From contig CAZQVA010000002.1 of NCBI GenBank assembly GCA_964596685.1, positions 12,947 through 76,946 of the forward strand: a DNA stretch of 64,000 nt, read 5' to 3'. The DNA comes from an uncultured bacterium (GTDB lineage: Bacteria > Chlamydiota > Chlamydiia > Chlamydiales > VFKH01). The position numbers and the translations under genes were made by a program. The notes beneath the pieces are model-generated. The model searched no databases. It worked only from the letters and a program-made list of their open reading frames with translations, and had not been told where the DNA came from. Each line of letters opens with the position of its first letter. Positions within the stretch are counted from its first letter, which is position 1. This document shows, in pieces, positions 3,123-34,678 of the stretch.

Positions 3123-5880
3123 TGACTCCTTCTATCCATAATTTTGCAACAGGGTGCCACTCCTCAATAATTTGATCCGCCTTCATAGGTAATTGTGACC
3201 AAAGATAGGCGCCATCTGGAGCTCTTTCAAATGGTGCGATTTTTTCTTTAATTTTTCTGGTTAAAAGTTCTTCATTTTTTTCAGCAACAGCATGCACCCA
3301 ATCAGGGTGTAATGGACAGGGTTTTTTTCGTATTGCAAAGAATACTTGAAGTAGTTTGTTCCAGGCTCCTTGTTCCCAATTCAGAAGAAGTTTTTCTTGG
3401 GAGGGTAAAAAGATCCATTCCTTGGGTGATTTTGTTTGTTGTTGCATTTGATAAAATAGCATGGATGGCCATTGTTGTAGGATTTGCTCCTTACTTTTTT
3501 CAGTGAGGGATAATACTCCTTGAGGCCCTAAAAAAGGTAATTGTCCATAAATGGTGAGTGTCTGATTTTGAAATGGAATCTGAAGAGATTCCTTTGGAGT
3601 GATATGGAGGTCTTCAAGGCGAATGCCGAAATGTTGTAATTGCTCTTTTAATTTTATGCATTCGCGTTCGATGCGCAATTGCCCGCATTTTTTTAGGAGA
3701 GAAGAAGATCCCTTGTCAACGTTATGTACAGTATTTTCTAGCAGGGCTATTTTGGCTAGATAGCAGTCGAGTGAGTCAATAGAATCTGCTTCCTGGAGGG
3801 AGCGGGGCATCTCAATTTGCAGGACTTGTTCTAAATAGTATTTTAGAGGGTGTTTAAAGGCTTGGCGCAATTCAAAAAGAGAGAGGTCTTTGATAGGACA
3901 ACTTATCTCGATAGGGGATGCAAATGTTGTATGGGATAGTAAAGTGGGATGTGGTAATGAGTGAATTAAAGGAATTATACCTAGCGTTTCATAAAGTTCT
4001 TTTACGAGATAGCTTGCTTCTTGTTGAGGGCCACTCACACAGTAGCTAATCCACAATTGGTCTTGTGCAAGAAGTAATGCGTGGAGGAAAAGGCTCATTT
4101 CAATATGCAAAGGAGAAGCGCTTGTACGTTCAACAAAATGTGGTTGACTATTGCTGCGCGGGAATGCATCGGCATTCATATTCAGGAGAAAAAGAGCGCG
4201 CGCAGGGCGTAACCTACCTGGGAGGAGTGAGGCGATACGTATGCCACCTATCGATTGAGTGGCTAAAGTTGCTTCTTCTTGGTTTAATAATGTCTCTAAA
4301 AAATGGCCAGCGACTTGTTTAGAAAGCGGCACGCGCTGCCAACGCAGAGCACTTTCCTGGAAATGCGTTAATTGTTCTAAGAGGTATTCAGCTGCAGGAT
4401 CCCCATCAAAAGATAGCCATTTTAAAAAGAGCTCCGTAAAGAATTTCACCCAATCTTCCGCTGTTTGATAATGAGGTGTTATAAGGCTTGAGCGTACCTC
4501 CTGAAAAATAGTGTTCTGTTCTTGTGAGAGTTGGTGCAATTCTTTAACAGCAAGAAATTGTGCGCGTTGATTAAAAACTTTATGGTGAAGAAAAAATAGC
4601 CAGTCTGCTCTTTTTCCTTTTTCGCAAAGAGGTTCGGTAATTCGGTGTACCAGCCATAGAACCGCTTCAAGTAAGGGGCTTTGTTCTTTAAGCTTGAGAT
4701 CTTCGATGCATAAGGGCAGCCCTTTGAGTTCTTCATAAAGGAATGGCGCATCACTTGAAATGAGAGGTGTTAGGATGAGAATTTCATGTGGAGCAAGGCC
4801 ATTTTCAAGAAGCCTGAAAATTTCTACTTTTAACGTGCTATACTGCTGATGAAGTGTAGTGAACTGATGGATTTGTATGGATTGATCGACTGTTTTTTTC
4901 TGTACAGGTTGTAGGAGAGCGATTTCGCTTTGCAGCTCGAGCAACGCTGTCATAGGACCACTTTTATGGAAATAAAGATCTGGCATGAGTGTTTCGCGAA
5001 GAGGGTGCTCGTTGATACTCTCAGGTAATGTGTAGTGAGAGACACTTGGCCAATTTGTCGCTTCAAAAGCTTCTAAAAGTAGTCGATCTTGCTTGCCCCA
5101 ATTCGCTAAAAACCAATTGCTTGTCTCAAAAAAATTCTCAAGAGCTAATCTTTCCCCTAATCTAACACCGCGTGATTCCCAAAAGAGCTGTAGGTGCTGT
5201 CTTTCGCGTTCGGTGCGCAGATCTGAGAAAAACAACGCTGATGGACAGTGAAGATAGAAAAAAATTGGCAGAGCTTCATCCATTTTTCGCAATAAATGCC
5301 ATAAAGCACGTGTAAAAGAAGAGGGGGCAAAAAAGTGAAGAGTCTCAGTGGAATGTTCTGCTGGTAGTGTCTCAAGCGAATTGATTGTTTCCAAACAAGG
5401 TTTGATGCCATGCTCACGACACAAATGATGCCAGATTTCTAAAGGCCATCCTTCTGTAATACCTTCCGATGACCATTCTTGAAATAAGGAGGCTAAATGC
5501 AAACCCAAGTTGAGAGAAGCATCCCCTTGGCTCATTGCTTGTAGGTAATTTTTTGCTGGACCTGGCAGGTGAGGTAATAAATTCTCAAGGAGTAGAGCTA
5601 ATTCCATCTGCGATGGAAATAAAGGGAATGAGCGCTTAAAAAAGCGAGGTACCCACTGACCAAAAACTTCATGTGGTAATAAAATGCGAATGCCAAGAGT
5701 TTTTAGACCTTTCTGTTGTAGAGAATACAGTAGCCATTTTCCCATCGCTTCGCACGAAACGACAATCCAAGTGGGCACAACACTTGAGTAGGGGTGCTGC
5801 AAGAGTTGCTCCACTAAAGCTTGAAGCAGGCATTCTAATCGATTGCTGTAGTGAATTAATGGATGACTCATAAGCGCCAT
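3109..5880 (-). CDS. recC: RecC-like protein (exodeoxyribonuclease V gamma subunit family)
   Basis: 923-aa ORF immediately upstream of and overlapping recB. The N-terminus HYSNRLECLLQAL resembles RecC N-termini. It has no ATPase motifs, as expected for RecC. The call rests mainly on context. Confidence 0.7.
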   Translation of the reverse strand: MALMSHPLIHYSNRLECLLQALVEQLLQHPYSSVVPTWIVVSCEAMGKWLLYSLQQKGLKTLGIRILLPHEVFGQWVPRFFKRSFPLFPSQMELALLLENLLPHLPGPAKNYLQAMSQGDASLNLGLHLASLFQEWSSEGITEGWPLEIWHHLCREHGIKPCLETINSLETLPAEHSTETLHFFAPSSFTRALWHLLRKMDEALPIFFYLHCPSALFFSDLRTERERQHLQLFWESRGVRLGERLALENFFETSNWFLANWGKQDRLLLEAFEATNWPSVSHYTLPESINEHPLRETLMPDLYFHKSGPMTALLELQSEIALLQPVQKKTVDQSIQIHQFTTLHQQYSTLKVEIFRLLENGLAPHEILILTPLISSDAPFLYEELKGLPLCIEDLKLKEQSPLLEAVLWLVHRITEPLCEKGKRADWLFFLHHKVFNQRAQFLAVKELHQLSQEQNTIFQEVRSSLITPHYQTAEDWVKFFTELFLKWLSFDGDPAAEYLLEQLTHFQESALRWQRVPLSKQVAGHFLETLLNQEEATLATQSIGGIRIASLLPGRLRPARALFLLNMNADAFPRSNSQPHFVERTSASPLHIEMSLFLHALLLAQDQLWISYCVSGPQQEASYLVKELYETLGIIPLIHSLPHPTLLSHTTFASPIEISCPIKDLSLFELRQAFKHPLKYYLEQVLQIEMPRSLQEADSIDSLDCYLAKIALLENTVHNVDKGSSSLLKKCGQLRIERECIKLKEQLQHFGIRLEDLHITPKESLQIPFQNQTLTIYGQLPFLGPQGVLSLTEKSKEQILQQWPSMLFYQMQQQTKSPKEWIFLPSQEKLLLNWEQGAWNKLLQVFFAIRKKPCPLHPDWVHAVAEKNEELLTRKIKEKIAPFERAPDGAYLWSQLPMKADQIIEEWHPVAKLWIEGVNDGI

Positions 5881-6028: not shown

Positions 6029-6073
6029 TTTTAAAGTCGAACTTACGTTTCATAATGTGTAACCGTTACACAT
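6029..6073. repeat. Copy of a modular dispersed repeat (ttaaagtcgaac-ttacgtt module plus palindrome atgtgtaaccgttacacat)
   Basis: Bases 6031-6049 (ttaaagtcgaacttacgtt) differ by one base from the corresponding part of the 137-156 copy. The palindrome at 6055-6073 is identical to 23369-23387. Confidence 0.8.
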
Positions 6074-6101
6074 TGGTCAAAATCCTCTATCTGGTATGCT
6101 A

Positions 6102-6264
6102 ATACCCATCCCACCTGAAGAATTGGTTTTAGGCCGAAGAAAAAGCTTCCGCGATCGCGCCAGAAAAAAAGTCCCCATATTACTAATATGAGGACTTTTT
6201 TTCTGACTCGAGCCCGGGGCTTTCTCTTCTGTCTCAAATCCAATTCTTCAGGTGGGATGGGTAT
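6102..6264. mobile_element. MITE-like non-autonomous element, 163 bp, with perfect 25-bp terminal inverted repeats
   Basis: The left TIR at 6102-6126 (atacccatcccacctgaagaattgg) is the exact reverse complement of 6240-6264. There is an internal 13-bp hairpin (6162-6174 pairing with 6192-6204). The element has no coding capacity. A partial copy lies at 33976-34047 and a minimal copy at 27005-27047. Confidence 0.8.
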
Positions 6265-6296
6265 ATATAGTTACAATTCAAAAAGTAGGGCAGCGC

Positions 6297-7544
6297 ATGG
6301 ATCAGACAAAAACGGATAAAGTGGTAGATAAGGGGTGGTGGGGTTTTCACTGGCTCAATATCACCCAGTTTTTGGGAGTGGTGAATGATAATCTATTCAA
6401 GTTGTTACTGATTTTTTTCCTTGTTCGTTTAGAGGGACAGGATGCTTCCCCCTTGATTTTATCGCTAGCGGGCGCGATTTTTGTTATTCCATTCCTTCTT
6501 TTTTCCATGCCTTCTGGTGTATTAGCAGATCGCATGAGTAAGCGGACCATTATTATCTTAACGAAATGTGTAGAATTGGCAACTGCTATATTAGGTCTGA
6601 TAGGATTTATTTTCGTTTCGCCTATGGCTCTTTATGCGGCTCTTTTTCTACTAGCCACCGAAAGTGCAATTTTGGGGCCATCTAAATATGGAATCGTGCC
6701 AGAGCTGGTTTCTCGATCGCTAATTTCACGCGCTAATGGCTACTTGAGTTCAGGGACGTTCTTGGCTATCATCGTTGGAACGTCTATGGCAGGTCCTTTA
6801 GTGCAATTGGTGGATTTTGACTTTGTGATTGCAGGAAGTGCCTGTGTCTTAATTGCGTTTATCGGGTTTATCTGTAGCTGGCGTATTCCACATACCCGTC
6901 CTGTGGGCACCGAAAAAATGATGCAAGTATTTTTCCTAGGTACAATTTGGAGCGGCATTAAAAGGGCACAAAGAGTGCCATGTCTTTTTTCTTCAATGAT
7001 GGGATCTGCATTTTTTCTCTTTGTTGGAGGATTTGCCCAATTGAATGTCTTACCATTTGCTGTGCATTGCATGGGGTTGAGTGATGTACAGGGAAGTTAT
7101 CTCTTTCTTATTACCGCTTTGGGTATTGGATGTGGATCTTTAATAGCAGGACGTCTTTCAAAAGGCAGTGTACATCTGGGTCTTGTCCCTATAGGTGCGT
7201 TAGGAATGAGTATCAGTTTATTGGTTATTGGCATGTGTCCTTCATTTACCATCCTAGTGATTGCACTTTTTTCAGTGGGTGGCTTCGGAGGAATTTATCT
7301 CGTGCCACAAGATTCATATATCCAGGTTGCAAGCCCCGCAGAAGATCGTGGAGAGAATGTGGCCATTAATAATTTTACAGCCTTTGTTGGAGTCTTAATT
7401 GCATCGGGAATGATCTATTTATTTGGTGAGATATGGAATTTATCCCCAGCTCGAGGCTTTACCATGATTGGAATAGTTACACTTTTGTTTGGCGCAATAA
7501 TTACCATTCCAATTTTAAAACATTTAAATTTTAATCGAAATTGA
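6297..7544 (+). CDS. MFS transporter, LplT-like (lysophospholipid transporter family) by N-terminal pattern
   Basis: The protein is multi-TM. The N-terminal segment ITQFLGVVNDNLFKLLLIFFL resembles the LplT/MFS_1 signature. The start was moved to ATG 6297 because the track start at 6252 is a GTG inside the MITE TIR. Confidence 0.7.
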   Translation: MDQTKTDKVVDKGWWGFHWLNITQFLGVVNDNLFKLLLIFFLVRLEGQDASPLILSLAGAIFVIPFLLFSMPSGVLADRMSKRTIIILTKCVELATAILGLIGFIFVSPMALYAALFLLATESAILGPSKYGIVPELVSRSLISRANGYLSSGTFLAIIVGTSMAGPLVQLVDFDFVIAGSACVLIAFIGFICSWRIPHTRPVGTEKMMQVFFLGTIWSGIKRAQRVPCLFSSMMGSAFFLFVGGFAQLNVLPFAVHCMGLSDVQGSYLFLITALGIGCGSLIAGRLSKGSVHLGLVPIGALGMSISLLVIGMCPSFTILVIALFSVGGFGGIYLVPQDSYIQVASPAEDRGENVAINNFTAFVGVLIASGMIYLFGEIWNLSPARGFTMIGIVTLLFGAIITIPILKHLNFNRN

Positions 7545-13097: not shown

Positions 13098-13255
13098 GGA
13101 CTTTAGACAAAATCTAACATTTTTACTAAGATAGCTCTAGAGCGCCTTTAAGGTGGCGCATCATCTCGAATAGCTGGGGCTATGTTTGATGACACCCTAC
13201 CTCAAATCCACCCTGGAGCGGTCGCTCTAAAAATGTTAGATGTTGTCTAGAGTCT
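13098..13255. repeat. 158-bp element bounded by an imperfect 28-bp inverted repeat
   Basis: Bases 13098-13125 (ggactttagacaaaatctaacattttta) match the reverse complement of 13228-13255 at 25 of 28 positions. The interior contains ctagagcgcc...ggcgcatcat, which is also found at 40539-40572. Confidence 0.7.
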
Positions 13256-25166: not shown

Positions 25167-27020
25167 ATGTGGCGTTTTCCTGTCATCTATGATGTCATTG
25201 TAGTAGGGGCGGGGCATGCGGGGTGTGAAGCGGCGTATGTCGCTGCACGACGCGGTGCCCGAACCCTCATGCTTACAATGAACCTCGATACCATTGCCAA
25301 GATGAGTTGTAATCCGGCAATTGGAGGAGTAGGGAAAGGGCATATCGTTCGTGAGATCGATGCGCTTGGTGGCATTATGGGCAAGATAACGGATCGCACA
25401 GCGATTCAGTTCCGTATGCTAAACGCTTCTCGCGGTCCAGCTGTTTGGGCACCACGTGCTCAAGCGGATAAGGCTGCGTATCAATTAGAAATGAAGCGTG
25501 TTCTTGAATTACTTCCTAATTTAGAAATCAAGCAGGGAACCACCGAAGGTCTGTGGATTGAAGATGATCGCATTTGCGGCGTTCACACTCTAGAGGGGAT
25601 TACCTATCAAGGAAAAACGGTTGTTCTTTCCGCAGGTACCTTTATGCGAGGGTTATTGCATTTAGGACAGACACAATATAGTGGTGGACGTGCGGGTGAT
25701 AAGCCATCGGTAGGTCTATCTGCAGATTTAGAAGCCCTTGGATTCCGTTTAGGACGTTTAAAGACGGGGACCCCCCCGCGCATACATAGTTCATCCATTG
25801 ATTATAGCTCTTGTGAACTGCAGCCCGGAGAAGATGGGGTTTGTTTTTCATTTGATGCACCTGAACCACGTTTACCGCAGGTTCCTTGTCATATCACTTA
25901 CACTACTGCTCAGACAAAAGAGATTGTAAATAAGAATCTCCATCGCTCAGCTATGTATTCTGGTGCAATTCGGGGCGTGGGGCCTCGTTATTGTCCCTCT
26001 ATCGAAGATAAATTTGTACGCTTCGCTGATAAAGAGCGTCACCAAGTCTTTTTAGAGCCTGAAGGTCTCAATACGCAAGAAGTTTACGTCAATGGGATCT
26101 CTACATCACTGCCTGTTGATGTCCAACATGACTTGATCCGCTCTATTGTTGGGCTTGAGAATGCACAAATTATGCGTCTGGCCTATGCTATCGAATATGA
26201 TTATCTCATCAGCGGACAAGTCGACTATACTTTAGAGAGTCGCACGGTTAAGGGGCTCTTTTTTGCTGGGCAAATTAATGGAACAACGGGTTATGAAGAA
26301 GCAGCAGGTCAAGGGCTTATTGCAGGAATTAATGCTGTCAACCGCGCTTTTAATCAGTCTGCATTCATTTTAAGTCGCAATGAGTCCTATATTGGAGTCA
26401 TGATTGATGATCTCATTAATAAAGGGTTGGGAGAGGAGTTTGGTTGCCAAGAGCCTTACCGCATGTTTACTAGCCGTGCTGAAAATCGCTTAATGCTGCT
26501 ACAAGGGAATGCGGATTTAAGACTACGCAAATATGGGTATGAACTTGGGCTAATTGATCAGCAGCCCTATGAAGCATTGGTAAAAAAACAAGCATGTATT
26601 GAGCATGAATGCCAACGTCTGCAAAAAGTTTTTGTTCAGATCAATGGAAAGGGATATTCTTTGGCTCAGTTGCTGGCGCGTCCTGAAAGCTCCTATGCTG
26701 AATTGCAAGCGCAATACCCAGAAAAACTTGATCCTCTGCCTCAAGATGTAACTCAACATATTGAGTGGAATTTACGCTACGCAGGGTATATCAAACGGCA
26801 GGAAATTGAGATTCAGAAACTCGAACAAATTGATACAATCGAAATCCCTGAAGACTTTAGTTATGCGAGCATTAAGGCGCTGTGTCGAGAGGCACGTGAA
26901 AAACTCTCCCGCATTCGCCCTAGGACTTTAGGTCAAGCTTCGCGCATCAGTGGGATTTCTCCTGCAGATCTCTCTATTTTGATGGTGACGCTGCGGAGAA
27001 CATGTACCCATTCTACCTAA
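25167..27020 (+). CDS. mnmG: tRNA uridine-5-carboxymethylaminomethyl modification enzyme MnmG (GidA)
   Basis: The FAD motif [14 protein letters not shown] is present and the 617-aa protein is collinear with GidA. The last five codons and the stop lie in the left arm of the 27005-27047 hairpin. Confidence 0.95.
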
Positions 27021-27047
27021 AATCCAATTCTTCAGGTGGAATGGGTA
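27005..27047. repeat. Minimal copy of the MITE arms, forming a 14-bp hairpin between convergent mnmG and fmt
   Basis: Bases 27005-27018 (tacccattctacct) pair with 27034-27047 (aggtggaatgggta), with one mismatch and a 15-nt loop. Bases 27019-27047 match the right TIR region of the 6102-6264 element. Confidence 0.8.
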
Positions 27048-27982
27048 TTAACGGCTTGCACAGGGTACCCGCAAGCGAATGCTTTAGCTGTTACAATACT
27101 TTTACCTGGTATCTGGACTTCTAAAAGTTCAAGAGAGCCCTTCTTGCATGCAATAATGATACCCGATTTTCCCCATTGTAAGATTTGTCCCGGTGTATGA
27201 TTGGATTCATCATACAGGCGCGTTTTGAGAATACGTAGTTTTTCTTCTTTTCCTCTCAGGCGGATTTTACACCATGCACCCGGCTCAGGATTGGTCCCGC
27301 GCACGAGGTTGTGTATTTCAGCTGCAGATCGATTCCAGTCAATATAGGTGTCATCGAGTGTAATTTTATGAGCAAAAGTTACCATACGTGGATCTTGCTC
27401 CTGGGGAATAATTTTACCCGCAAGCCATCCACGCACCGTATCGCGTAGCAGAGGCTGGCTTAAATGACATAGCTGATCGCGCAATTCGCCATAAGTCATA
27501 TCAGGAGGGATTTCAATGGAAGCGGTTGCTAAAATTGGTCCCGCGTCCATTTCCAGAGCCATTTTCATGATCGTCACGCCAGTCGATGTTTCACCATTGA
27601 TAAGTGCATACTGGATGGGTGCCGCCCCTCTTAAAGTCGGTAAAATGCTGCCATGAACGTTGATGACACCATGTTTTGGGACATCTAACAAATTTTGCTT
27701 AAGGAGTTGTCCATAGGCAACGACAATAAACAGCTCAGGATTTAATGCGGCAAGTTGAGAGACACTTTCAGCGCTAGAGGCTTTAAGTGGTTGAAAACAG
27801 GGTACGTGAGGTAAAAGTTTGGCAGCAACCTCTTTGACAGGAGGAGCAAGAAGTTGTTTGGAGCGCCCTTGTGCTTTATCGGGTTGCGTTACGATGCCAA
27901 CCACTTCGAAAAAGGGATCACCAATTAAGTCCTCGAGGATTTTGGCGGCAAAATCCGGTGTGCCAAAGAAGACAACCTTCAT
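27032..27982 (-). CDS. fmt: Methionyl-tRNA formyltransferase
   Basis: MKVVFFGTPDFA and HGSILPTLRGAAPIQ are present. It sits in the conserved lpxC-fabZ-lpxA-fmt arrangement. Confidence 0.9.
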   Translation of the reverse strand: MKVVFFGTPDFAAKILEDLIGDPFFEVVGIVTQPDKAQGRSKQLLAPPVKEVAAKLLPHVPCFQPLKASSAESVSQLAALNPELFIVVAYGQLLKQNLLDVPKHGVINVHGSILPTLRGAAPIQYALINGETSTGVTIMKMALEMDAGPILATASIEIPPDMTYGELRDQLCHLSQPLLRDTVRGWLAGKIIPQEQDPRMVTFAHKITLDDTYIDWNRSAAEIHNLVRGTNPEPGAWCKIRLRGKEEKLRILKTRLYDESNHTPGQILQWGKSGIIIACKKGSLELLEVQIPGKSIVTAKAFACGYPVQAVNTHST

Positions 27983-32477: not shown

Positions 32478-34052
32478 CTATTTATATGTTTTTCTTTTGA
32501 AAATTGCTACTAATAAACACAAAGTCGAACAGCAGATAATTCCCCAGTCTCCAAGATGAGGATATAGGGTTGGATGATTGATGAGATGAACTGTTTCTCG
32601 ATGTGCGATTGTTTGATCGATCGATGTGAGGTATAAAATACGGCCTTGATGGTCGATGACACCAGAAATTCCTGTGGTACAGCTTCTAAGAAGGGGGATT
32701 CCATTTTCTGCCGCGCGCACGCGAGCATGCAAAAAGTGTTGGTAGGGTAGAGTTGAATGGGGATACCATCCATCATTAGTTAGATTTAGAAAACACTGCG
32801 CCCCCAATTGCCGAAAAAGACACATTGTGCGTCCAAATGTTTCTTCATAACAGATTGAAGGAGCAAAAGCGTGGCTACTATAAAACAGCACAGGGCTTTG
32901 ACCTGGAGCAAAAGAATCGTAGATATCAAAACGCTCTGCTAAGCTACGGCACCAGGCATAGGGGATATATTCACCAATGGGGACAAGAATTTGTTTTGCA
33001 TAACTATAATGTTCTTTTCTGTCATGGGGGATGAAGAGGGCGGACTGGTAAGTTTGTGGGAGGTTGTCTCGCTCTTCTAATCCGACCACCACATCTGCAT
33101 GCCAGCGACGCGCTAGGTTTTGTAGGCCCTCAAAAGTGGATTGCCAAATGATCTGATCCTGCCACTTGATGGGGAAGCGTTCATGTGCTTCAAAAGCAAT
33201 AGCATTTTCTGGCATGAGAATAAGATCAATGGAGTCTTTTGCATAAGGGAGCATGAGTTTTTCAAGATTTTCTAAGCGAAAAAATGGATGCTCATTAAAA
33301 GAGGCCATTTGCCCTGGTTGCACTAAAAGGATATTAAAGTTACCTAAGGGCGTCTTATTGTACTCATTTGAAAGCATCAGCACACTGCCTAGGCTAAAGA
33401 GGCCGATCAGTGTGGCACAGTAGACTTTAGGGCGTGTTAGGAAGGCGCAGCCATTGAGAAAAAAGAGCGCAAAGGAAAGGCCAAAAATCCCAAGAATACT
33501 GCTGAGTTGTAAAAGTGGAAGATTATGGCTCCATAACATCCCCCATGGATTCCACGAAAAACCCGACATAAATTCGAGGCGTAAAAGCTCCATGATTGTT
33601 CCAAACGCTGCAAGCGCACAGACTAAATAGATGTTGGAGCGCTCTTGTCTTTTGAGTTGAAAGGCGATAGCCGTGAGTAGAGTCATTTGTATGCTACATG
33701 CAGAAGCGACAAAGAGCCAAAGAAGCAGAAAAAGGGGGCCTGTCAATGTGATCGCACTCATCCATGAGATCCAAATACCCCATATGCTCATGAAAAGAAA
33801 AAATGCAGCAGGTAATTGCTTGCGCGGCGGCAAGAGCCAGAGGCCTTTCCAGAGTAACGCTAGTCCAAAAGCACCTGAAAAAAATGCTAGGAGGTCAAAA
33901 TAGGGAAATAAGAGGCCCGACTGCCCCAGTGCAAGCAATACAAATCCGCAAACAGTCCATAAAATGGCAAGATAAGGGCTTTTTTCTTGACTCGAGCCCG
34001 GGACTTTCTCTCGGTTTAAAATCCAATTCTTCAGGTGGAATGGGTGTCGCAT
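32478..34052 (-). CDS. lnt: Apolipoprotein N-acyltransferase
   Basis: An N-terminal polytopic region is followed by a CN-hydrolase domain (LILMPENA, PSICYEETF). The first ~25 codons run through a partial MITE copy, so the true start is uncertain. Confidence 0.85.
   Translation of the reverse strand: MRHPFHLKNWILNREKVPGSSQEKSPYLAILWTVCGFVLLALGQSGLLFPYFDLLAFFSGAFGLALLWKGLWLLPPRKQLPAAFFLFMSIWGIWISWMSAITLTGPLFLLLWLFVASACSIQMTLLTAIAFQLKRQERSNIYLVCALAAFGTIMELLRLEFMSGFSWNPWGMLWSHNLPLLQLSSILGIFGLSFALFFLNGCAFLTRPKVYCATLIGLFSLGSVLMLSNEYNKTPLGNFNILLVQPGQMASFNEHPFFRLENLEKLMLPYAKDSIDLILMPENAIAFEAHERFPIKWQDQIIWQSTFEGLQNLARRWHADVVVGLEERDNLPQTYQSALFIPHDRKEHYSYAKQILVPIGEYIPYAWCRSLAERFDIYDSFAPGQSPVLFYSSHAFAPSICYEETFGRTMCLFRQLGAQCFLNLTNDGWYPHSTLPYQHFLHARVRAAENGIPLLRSCTTGISGVIDHQGRILYLTSIDQTIAHRETVHLINHPTLYPHLGDWGIICCSTLCLLVAIFKRKTYK
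33976..34047. repeat. Partial (right-half) copy of the 6102-6264 MITE-like element
   Basis: gggcttttttcttgactcgagcccgggactttctctcggtttaaaatccaattcttcaggtggaatgggtgt aligns with 6191-6264 with a few substitutions or indels. Confidence 0.8.
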
Positions 34053-34678
34053 GGAAAATACTCGGGTAGAGGGGCTGTGAATTCTATTTCTTCTCTCTGT
34101 ATTGGATGGTGTAGCCGCATTTTATGGTGATGTAGAGCGATGGCATGTTTTTGAGGCCAAGGCATGCCACCATATTTTATATCGCCTAAAATAGGTGAAC
34201 CTAAAGCAGCTAGTTGGATGCGAATTTGATGATAGCGTCCAGAGATAAGTTCTACTTGCAGCAAGGAACCAGTTCCTTTTTTCAATAGAGTAGTATAGTT
34301 TAATTGAGCAAGTTTGGCACCAGGTGTGCCAGGTGGTACGATGTGTGCTTTATGATCACCATGTGTTAGCCAATGTTCGCAGGTGCCAGTGGGGCAAGAG
34401 GGGGAGGGATGAACGAAAGCCAGATAGGTCTTTGAACAAGTGCGCTCTTTGAGTGCGGCATGCAGACGCGCAAGGGCTTTGCTCGTTTTGGCACAAAGAA
34501 GAATCCCGCTGACAGGTTTGTCGATTTGATGAGCCGCTTCTAAAAAGACATTGCCAGGTTTATTTAGCAAGATCTTGAGAGTGTCGCGTGCGTTATAAGT
34601 GGCCTCTTCAGTCGTCTGACCAGCGAGTTTATTAATGACAACAAGATGGTTGTCGAGGAATAAAATGGGATGTTTCAC
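34031..34678 (-). CDS. RluA-family pseudouridine synthase
   Basis: FLDNHLVVINKLAGQ and the catalytic-Asp motif HQIDKPVSGILL are present. The last codons (THST-stop) lie in the repeat. Confidence 0.8.
   Translation of the reverse strand: MKHPILFLDNHLVVINKLAGQTTEEATYNARDTLKILLNKPGNVFLEAAHQIDKPVSGILLCAKTSKALARLHAALKERTCSKTYLAFVHPSPSCPTGTCEHWLTHGDHKAHIVPPGTPGAKLAQLNYTTLLKKGTGSLLQVELISGRYHQIRIQLAALGSPILGDIKYGGMPWPQKHAIALHHHKMRLHHPIQREEIEFTAPLPEYFPCDTHST

Follow-up and report, generated by a model that had tools for sequence, protein, structure and literature searches.

In the 64-kb stretch of DNA analysed here (the window), the genes mnmG and fmt converge on each other, and a hairpin lies exactly where they meet. 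The product of mnmG ends with the residues T-H-S-T followed by TAA, and that of fmt with the same residues followed by TGA. The question raised by this locus is how unrelated proteins came to carry the same tail, and what the hairpin has to do with it. The initial annotation had observed a T-H-S-T-stop ending, within a copy of one repeat, in mnmG, fmt and an RluA-family gene, and this was confirmed. Our main reading, which we hold with a probability of about 0.85, is that a TA-duplicating palindromic MITE of 161 bp left the hairpin as its remnant, and that insertion of this element into the TA of a stop codon yields the THST tails. Coordinates of the features are collected in Table 1.

Table 1. 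Genes, element copies and hairpin parts, with positions in the window.
Feature	Position	Strand	Description
Full-length palindromic MITE	6103-6263		161 bp, TACCC...GGGTA; 81-nt arms, 78% complementary
mnmG	25167-27020	+	Last codons TGT ACC CAT TCT ACC + TAA, in/at left arm of hairpin
Mini-copy of MITE, internally deleted	27005-27047		14 nt of one end (27005-27018) + 29 nt of other TIR (27019-27047)
Hairpin, left arm	27005-27018		TACCCATTCTACCT
Hairpin, loop	27019-27033		15 nt, AAAATCCAATTCTTC
Intergenic gap mnmG/fmt	27021-27031		11 nt, stop to stop
Hairpin, right arm	27034-27047		AGGTGGAATGGGTA
fmt	27032-27982	-	Last codons AAT ACC CAT TCC ACC + TGA, in/at right arm of hairpin; ends ..AVNTHST-TGA
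lnt, apolipoprotein N-acyltransferase	32478-34052	-	ATG 34052-34050; residues 2-27 read through half copy in second frame
Half copy of MITE	33971-34046	-	76 nt: one TIR + arm up to central loop
RluA-family pseudouridine synthase gene (rluA)	34031-34678	-	Ends ..FPCDTHST-TGA; tail D-T-H-S-T + TGA encoded by TIR

The hairpin and its repeat family

The two arms of the hairpin form 14 pairs, one of which is G.T, and differ from each other at one position. As RNA of the plus strand the hairpin was predicted to fold with -22.9 kcal/mol against a mean of -11.4 for shuffled sequences (z = -4.0; 0 of 200 shuffles as good), and as RNA of the minus strand with -20.7 kcal/mol (z = -3.6). The initial annotation had described a 14-bp stem and a 15-nt loop built from the arms of the element at 6102-6264 (here 6103-6263), with the whole 11-nt intergenic gap inside the hairpin. 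The pairing bears this out, together with a complementarity of 94% between positions 27020-27050 and 6100-6130, and the gap does fall within the hairpin. It had also stated that the hairpin is not a canonical intrinsic terminator, and we agree: no terminator-like site was found on either strand in 26500-27500, and no T-run lies 3' of either arm, so the hairpin lacks the U-tract of an intrinsic (Rho-independent) terminator. Both stop codons straddle the boundary between stem and loop, and terminating ribosomes must therefore open the stem. Two Logan contigs, L002 (SRR14271332) and L003 (SRR14271331), both stop inside the right TIR of the hairpin, as is expected where assembly graphs branch at a multi-copy repeat.

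The window holds three copies of the element, one full, one half and one mini. The full copy is a near-perfect palindrome with TIRs of 28-30 nt. It lies between two divergently transcribed gene starts, is the only full-length copy in the window, and encodes T-H-P-T-stop with no gene attached. The 26-nt core of the TIR occurs four times in the window (0 expected) and the 13-nt core of the arm five times (0.19 expected). No additional copy was found in the 9 kb beyond the right edge, which makes three copies in 73 kb of this genome. The dinucleotides that flank the copies in the window are degenerate (TG/TT, GA/TT and AA/TA); those of the half copy, its former target duplications, are GA at 34047-34048 and TT at 33969-33970.

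Reading frames of the 161-bp element give short peptides only and no transposase. The combination of TIRs on a short element that lacks a transposase, dispersed copies, a TA duplication and a pair of filled and empty sites (described below) identifies it as a MITE. No autonomous element with this TIR was seen, whether in the window, the adjoining 9 kb or the related loci that were fetched, and no transposase was found beside a lone TIR in one of those loci (L023). BLAST searches of both element types against plasmids gave no matches, a scan of JGI metagenomes with the chlamydial variant gave one chance match in a coding region rich in Gly and Pro, and the literal sequence of the element was not found in the literature. 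In an Rfam scan of the window only two tRNAs reached the gathering threshold. The full copy (6100-6265) matched the plant miRNA family MIR1435 over its full length, scoring 44.6 bits where the gathering score is 94; we rejected this candidate, and the resemblance most likely reflects the generic likeness of long AT-rich hairpins.

Other repeats were noticed as well. A second family is represented by a 150-bp element at positions 1-150, bounded by 40-nt inverted repeats that are 95% complementary; its end motif, TTTAAAGTCGAACT(C/T)ACGTT, recurs at 6030-6049, about 55 bp from the element at 6103, and at 44748-44767, just downstream of two tRNA genes. A third repeat is a palindrome of about 156 bp at 13099-13254, with 76-nt arms that are 71% complementary and 4 nt between them, and its sequence is unrelated to that of the THST element. 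Downstream of the full THST copy, the ORF of a transporter-like gene can be extended to a GTG inside the TIR (6252), its first ATG being at 6297, and gene callers may add element-derived N-terminal residues to this gene.

Insertion into stop codons and the origin of the tail

The tail is best understood from rluA, for which an empty site was available. The RluA protein of a relative (P0122) is 87% identical, is 5 residues shorter (210 aa) and ends ..PEYFPC-TAG. On the contig of this relative (L035) the site reads tat ttt ccg tgc TAG cac ttt tat gga ct, and comparison with the window gives a clean insertion of 78 nt at the TA of the rluA stop codon, i.e. 76 nt of element and one target copy. 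The empty site is C-TA-G. The only start of lnt in the relative that lies upstream of the first membrane helix is a GTG overlapping the last codons of rluA (GTG CTA GCA..., translated M L A L L W T), which leads directly into that helix. In lnt of the window the homologous position is an ATG, after which come 26 codons encoded by the element and then LAILWT. Residues 3-11 of distant Lnt homologues begin the alignment at residues 27-36 of the window protein. These alignment starts and the RluA homologues without a tail together establish the insertion as the derived state. Comparison of the two sequences thus shows that one insertion removed the stop codon of rluA, added the tail (now D-T-H-S-T) and gave Lnt 26 residues after Met1. 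It entered C-TA-G at the point where the TAG of rluA overlapped the second codon of lnt; the other half of the palindrome was lost later with lnt kept in frame, 78 nt being 26 codons. Since 161 + 2 = 163 nt, the frame is kept only by this 78-nt remnant and by a 160-nt copy in another genome (L010).

The proposed mechanism is as follows. A codon that begins with TA and enters the end of the element reads TA-T ACC CAT TCC ACC TGA, and insertion into the TA of TAA or TAG would turn the stop into Tyr, followed by Thr-His-Ser-Thr before the TGA encoded by the TIR, with the second TA copy rebuilding the old stop beyond the element. Insertion into TAA or TAG gives the tail automatically, because codons with initial TA can only stand for Tyr or for a stop (TAA/TAG) and the sequence of the TIR is fixed. 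In the three genes of the window the Tyr codons have presumably drifted since to TGT, AAT and GAC, respectively, in mnmG, fmt and rluA.

Two further observations fit this origin. Firstly, a comparison with the C-termini of homologues, along the lines that the initial annotation had called for, found THST in 0 of 119 Fmt, 0 of 119 RluA and 0 of 119 MnmG-fragment homologues; with the rluA empty site, whose gene ends ..FPC-TAG, this upholds the earlier view that the tail is encoded by the repeat and that the present stops are the element's own. Secondly, related elements occur at stop codons of other genomes. A scan of GTDB representatives for the TIR, which did not include the window's own genome, found elements of equal length that share the terminal 22 nt (TATACCCATTCCACCTGAAGAA) and have unrelated interiors. 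There are about 13 related copies in other genomes, and the carriers are labelled Alphaproteobacteria (VGDN01), 'Rickettsia typhi' (CAMDJN01) and 'Rhizobium' (CAYVKI01); the 'Rickettsia typhi' label is doubtful in view of a G+C content of 37-40%. Elements were present in the alphaproteobacterial-labelled loci L006, L009, L010, L012, L013, L015, L019, L023, L025, L028 and L030, and a Legionellaceae-labelled assembly (L022) has a 26-bp mini-copy at 3931-3957, made of 17 + 9 nt. About 16 single GTDB matches were set aside as due to chance or to coding sequence; such matches are to be expected when 596 Gb are searched with a 19-mer. In the alphaproteobacterial and Legionellaceae assemblies 20 of the 22 termini are preceded by TA and the remaining two by CA, and several of the alphaproteobacterial copies have one frame open throughout the element in both orientations.

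Three of these copies lie at the ends of genes. An ORF for an NAD-dependent epimerase (L028) ends ..SKIYTHST-stop, and its joined flanks give ..SKI-TAA. An ORF for a GNAT acetyltransferase (L030) ends ..RALYTHST-stop within a mini-hairpin of 46 bp, and its joined flanks give ..RAL-TAG. In L010 the 160-nt copy sits at a TA directly before TAG, and a glutamine amidotransferase ORF gains a C-terminal extension of about 54 residues. The ends of 22 nt are common to three bacterial groups, named by their labels as deposited: Chlamydiota, Rickettsiales-like Alphaproteobacteria and a Legionellaceae assembly. They suggest an exchange of mobile DNA among intracellular bacteria, with a transposase that is shared or exchanged, a suggestion which is not yet secured.

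The tails of MnmG and RluA lie past the end of the region that aligns to solved structures, homology stopping at residue 611 of MnmG (..ILMVTLRR) and at residue 206 of RluA, and in 119 Fmt homologues the C-terminal lengths vary around that of the window protein. The tail would be a tolerated, passive by-product beyond the conserved domains. That it is instead a functional tag for stability, sorting or recognition, selected on three proteins, is highly improbable in spite of its presence on three unrelated proteins in one 64-kb window, given that the 87%-identical RluA orthologue and every other homologue examined do without it, the same tail stands on unrelated alphaproteobacterial enzymes wherever the TIR abuts a stop codon, its codons are fixed by a sequence needed as transposon end, and the copy at 6103 encodes THPT without an attached gene.

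The initial annotation had gone further and proposed that the element inserts at or near the 3' ends of genes and replaces their native stops. The replacement of a stop is borne out by the rluA empty site, whereas a general preference for 3' ends is not. Among intergenic or stop-codon TA sites in the window and the related loci, 96 of 1352 (7.1%) belong to stop codons. Four of 16 elements lie in such a TA (binomial p = 0.023), a count which includes the window cases that prompted the hypothesis; in the independent set there were two of 13 (p = 0.23). Because the full copy lies between divergent genes, and the rluA copy also adds an in-frame insert at the 5' end of lnt, the case for a bias towards the 3' ends of genes in general is suggestive only.

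A bolder extension is that the end sequence is shaped so that the element itself terminates translation, that TAA and TAG are safe landing sites in packed intracellular genomes, and that one transposase lineage moves among bacteria sharing protist hosts. We consider this combination speculative and quite improbable; if it were true, insertion into TAA or TAG would be nearly harmless, with a stop four codons into the TIR in the frame that a TA at codon positions 1-2 sets.

History of the mnmG/fmt junction

For the hairpin itself, most of the palindrome would have been deleted after insertion, so that each of the converging genes now reads into one end. When the flanks on the mnmG side are joined they give ..RRT-TAA if an ancestral TA is assumed, and TGA in place of TAA if the TG found there now is used, and homologues of MnmG have similar ends, e.g., ..ILRT and ..LKQRR. 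The same joining restores no nearby stop for fmt. This asymmetry is an argument for a different course of events, in which mnmG and fmt each received an element in the stop codon and a later deletion or rearrangement joined the two, leaving 14 + 29 nt, as opposed to a single insertion into overlapping stops (T-TA-A) followed by internal deletion. Two elements would put both genes into the THST frame without any need for overlapping stops, and the difference between the arms at one position fits as well. The junction also seems to be specific to this lineage. The gene order of the window is lnt-lpxC-fabZ-lpxA-fmt, and in three Fmt relatives that were checked the order differs and mnmG does not follow fmt. 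The window comes from a chlamydia-like bacterium, whose nearest Fmt proteins are about 50% identical and carry the labels Parachlamydiaceae, Parachlamydiales or Chlamydiales. The databases searched contained no relative in which the mnmG/fmt site is empty, and when the C-termini of MnmG and Fmt were combined into one chimeric query, no match exceeded 55% identity. Against two elements stands that one substitution, ACT to ACA, synonymous in mnmG, would rescue the single insertion, that no trace of a spacer or of a second element is left, and that single elements collapsed to mini-hairpins of the same build in L030 (30 + 15 nt) and L022. We regard the origin from two elements as a serious contender at somewhat under even odds.

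A further alternative concerns the present role of the hairpin rather than its origin. It might have been domesticated as a selected, bidirectional signal for the 3' ends of mnmG and fmt transcripts, either as a terminator without U-tract or as a barrier to 3'-exonucleases. The stem is strong on both strands and is placed exactly where the two genes converge, the long palindrome was not lost but reduced to a compact stem, and similar mini-hairpins persist in L030 and L022. However, there is neither a T-run nor a terminator-like site on either strand; with the stops at the stem-loop boundary, the stem would be opened by each ribosome that terminates there; a promoter-side spacer contains the same arms; TIR ancestry fully accounts for the complementarity of the arms; and the hairpin is carried by one genome only. 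We find domestication unlikely and infer that the hairpin is a consequence of TIR complementarity and not a purpose-built signal.

With the MITE origin, the locus offers a base-by-base example of how one small insertion rewrites two genes, replacing the stop of rluA and adding a tail while also giving the start of lnt 26 further residues, and of how a collapsed copy leaves two converging housekeeping genes with a common hairpin and a common tail. In the annotation of these lineages, a protein end that reads [Y/C/N/D]-T-H-[S/P]-T, or an N-terminal segment with ..PFHLKNW.., should be taken as derived from the element and not as native.

Comparison with known systems

A target duplication of 2 bp, TA, is a signature of IS630/Tc1-mariner transposition (PMC2170065). 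IS630 itself favours CTAG, according to Tenzen and Ohtsubo (1991) as cited in PMC2170065. The present element shares with MITEs linked to IS630/Tc1-mariner the insertion into TA and the duplication of 2 bp, and its empty site C-TA-G is the preferred target of IS630. Mobilisation by an IS630-type transposase would be consistent with the TA duplication and the one CTAG site.

RUP of Streptococcus pneumoniae and the Correia/NEMIS elements of Neisseria are shorter than 200 bp, have TIRs that end in TA, fold into long hairpins and are mostly intergenic, being sometimes fused to ORFs (PMC2229807). Size, TA-ended TIRs, hairpin fold and ORF fusion are common to these families and the element described here. 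To our knowledge its sequence is unrelated to either of them. RUP reportedly carries stops in all six frames, whereas the present TIR has its stop four codons in and in one frame.

Rickettsia palindromic elements (RPE) are palindromic repeats of about 150 bp that join reading frames in obligate intracellular bacteria (PMC10969869), and the terminal TA is not found in all of them (PMC2229807). Incorporation in frame was seen here too, in the 26-residue insert of Lnt and the extension of about 54 residues in L010; unlike in RPE, the main outcome in the window is a tail of five residues and not an internal insert. Membership by peptide models was rejected: six translations of the element gave 0 matches in the whole of NCBIfam and Pfam with E up to 10, so that any RPE domain models in these libraries, such as those that NCBIfam includes, were not matched.

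Another likeness is to the REP sequences of E. coli, in that a stable extragenic hairpin adjoins a stop codon. Liang, Rudd and Deutscher reportedly found in 2015 that REP sequences no more than about 15 nt away from a stop codon stall ribosomes at termination and, via trans-translation, reduce expression. REPs are mobilised by RAYT, a different class of transposase, and here the stop codons sit at the stem-loop boundary itself. By analogy, a similar consequence is possible for mnmG and fmt, where the hairpin may protect mRNA 3' ends or impede terminating ribosomes.

A parallel in effect comes from Coxiella burnetii, in which QMITE1 and QMITE2 reach 1-50 bp into functional genes at the 3' end and the C-terminal 33 residues of EnhC come from one of these elements (PMC5896051). 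The THST tails belong to this class of effect, in a different family and organism; a target duplication inside a stop codon is not described in the passages of PMC5896051 that were consulted. The element reported here is a new MITE family, while the overlap or fusion of MITEs with the 3' ends of genes has already been documented (PMC5896051, PMC10969869, PMC2229807). What distinguishes it is a mechanism for a recurrent tail, the editing of overlapping genes by one insertion, and ends that are common to distant intracellular lineages.
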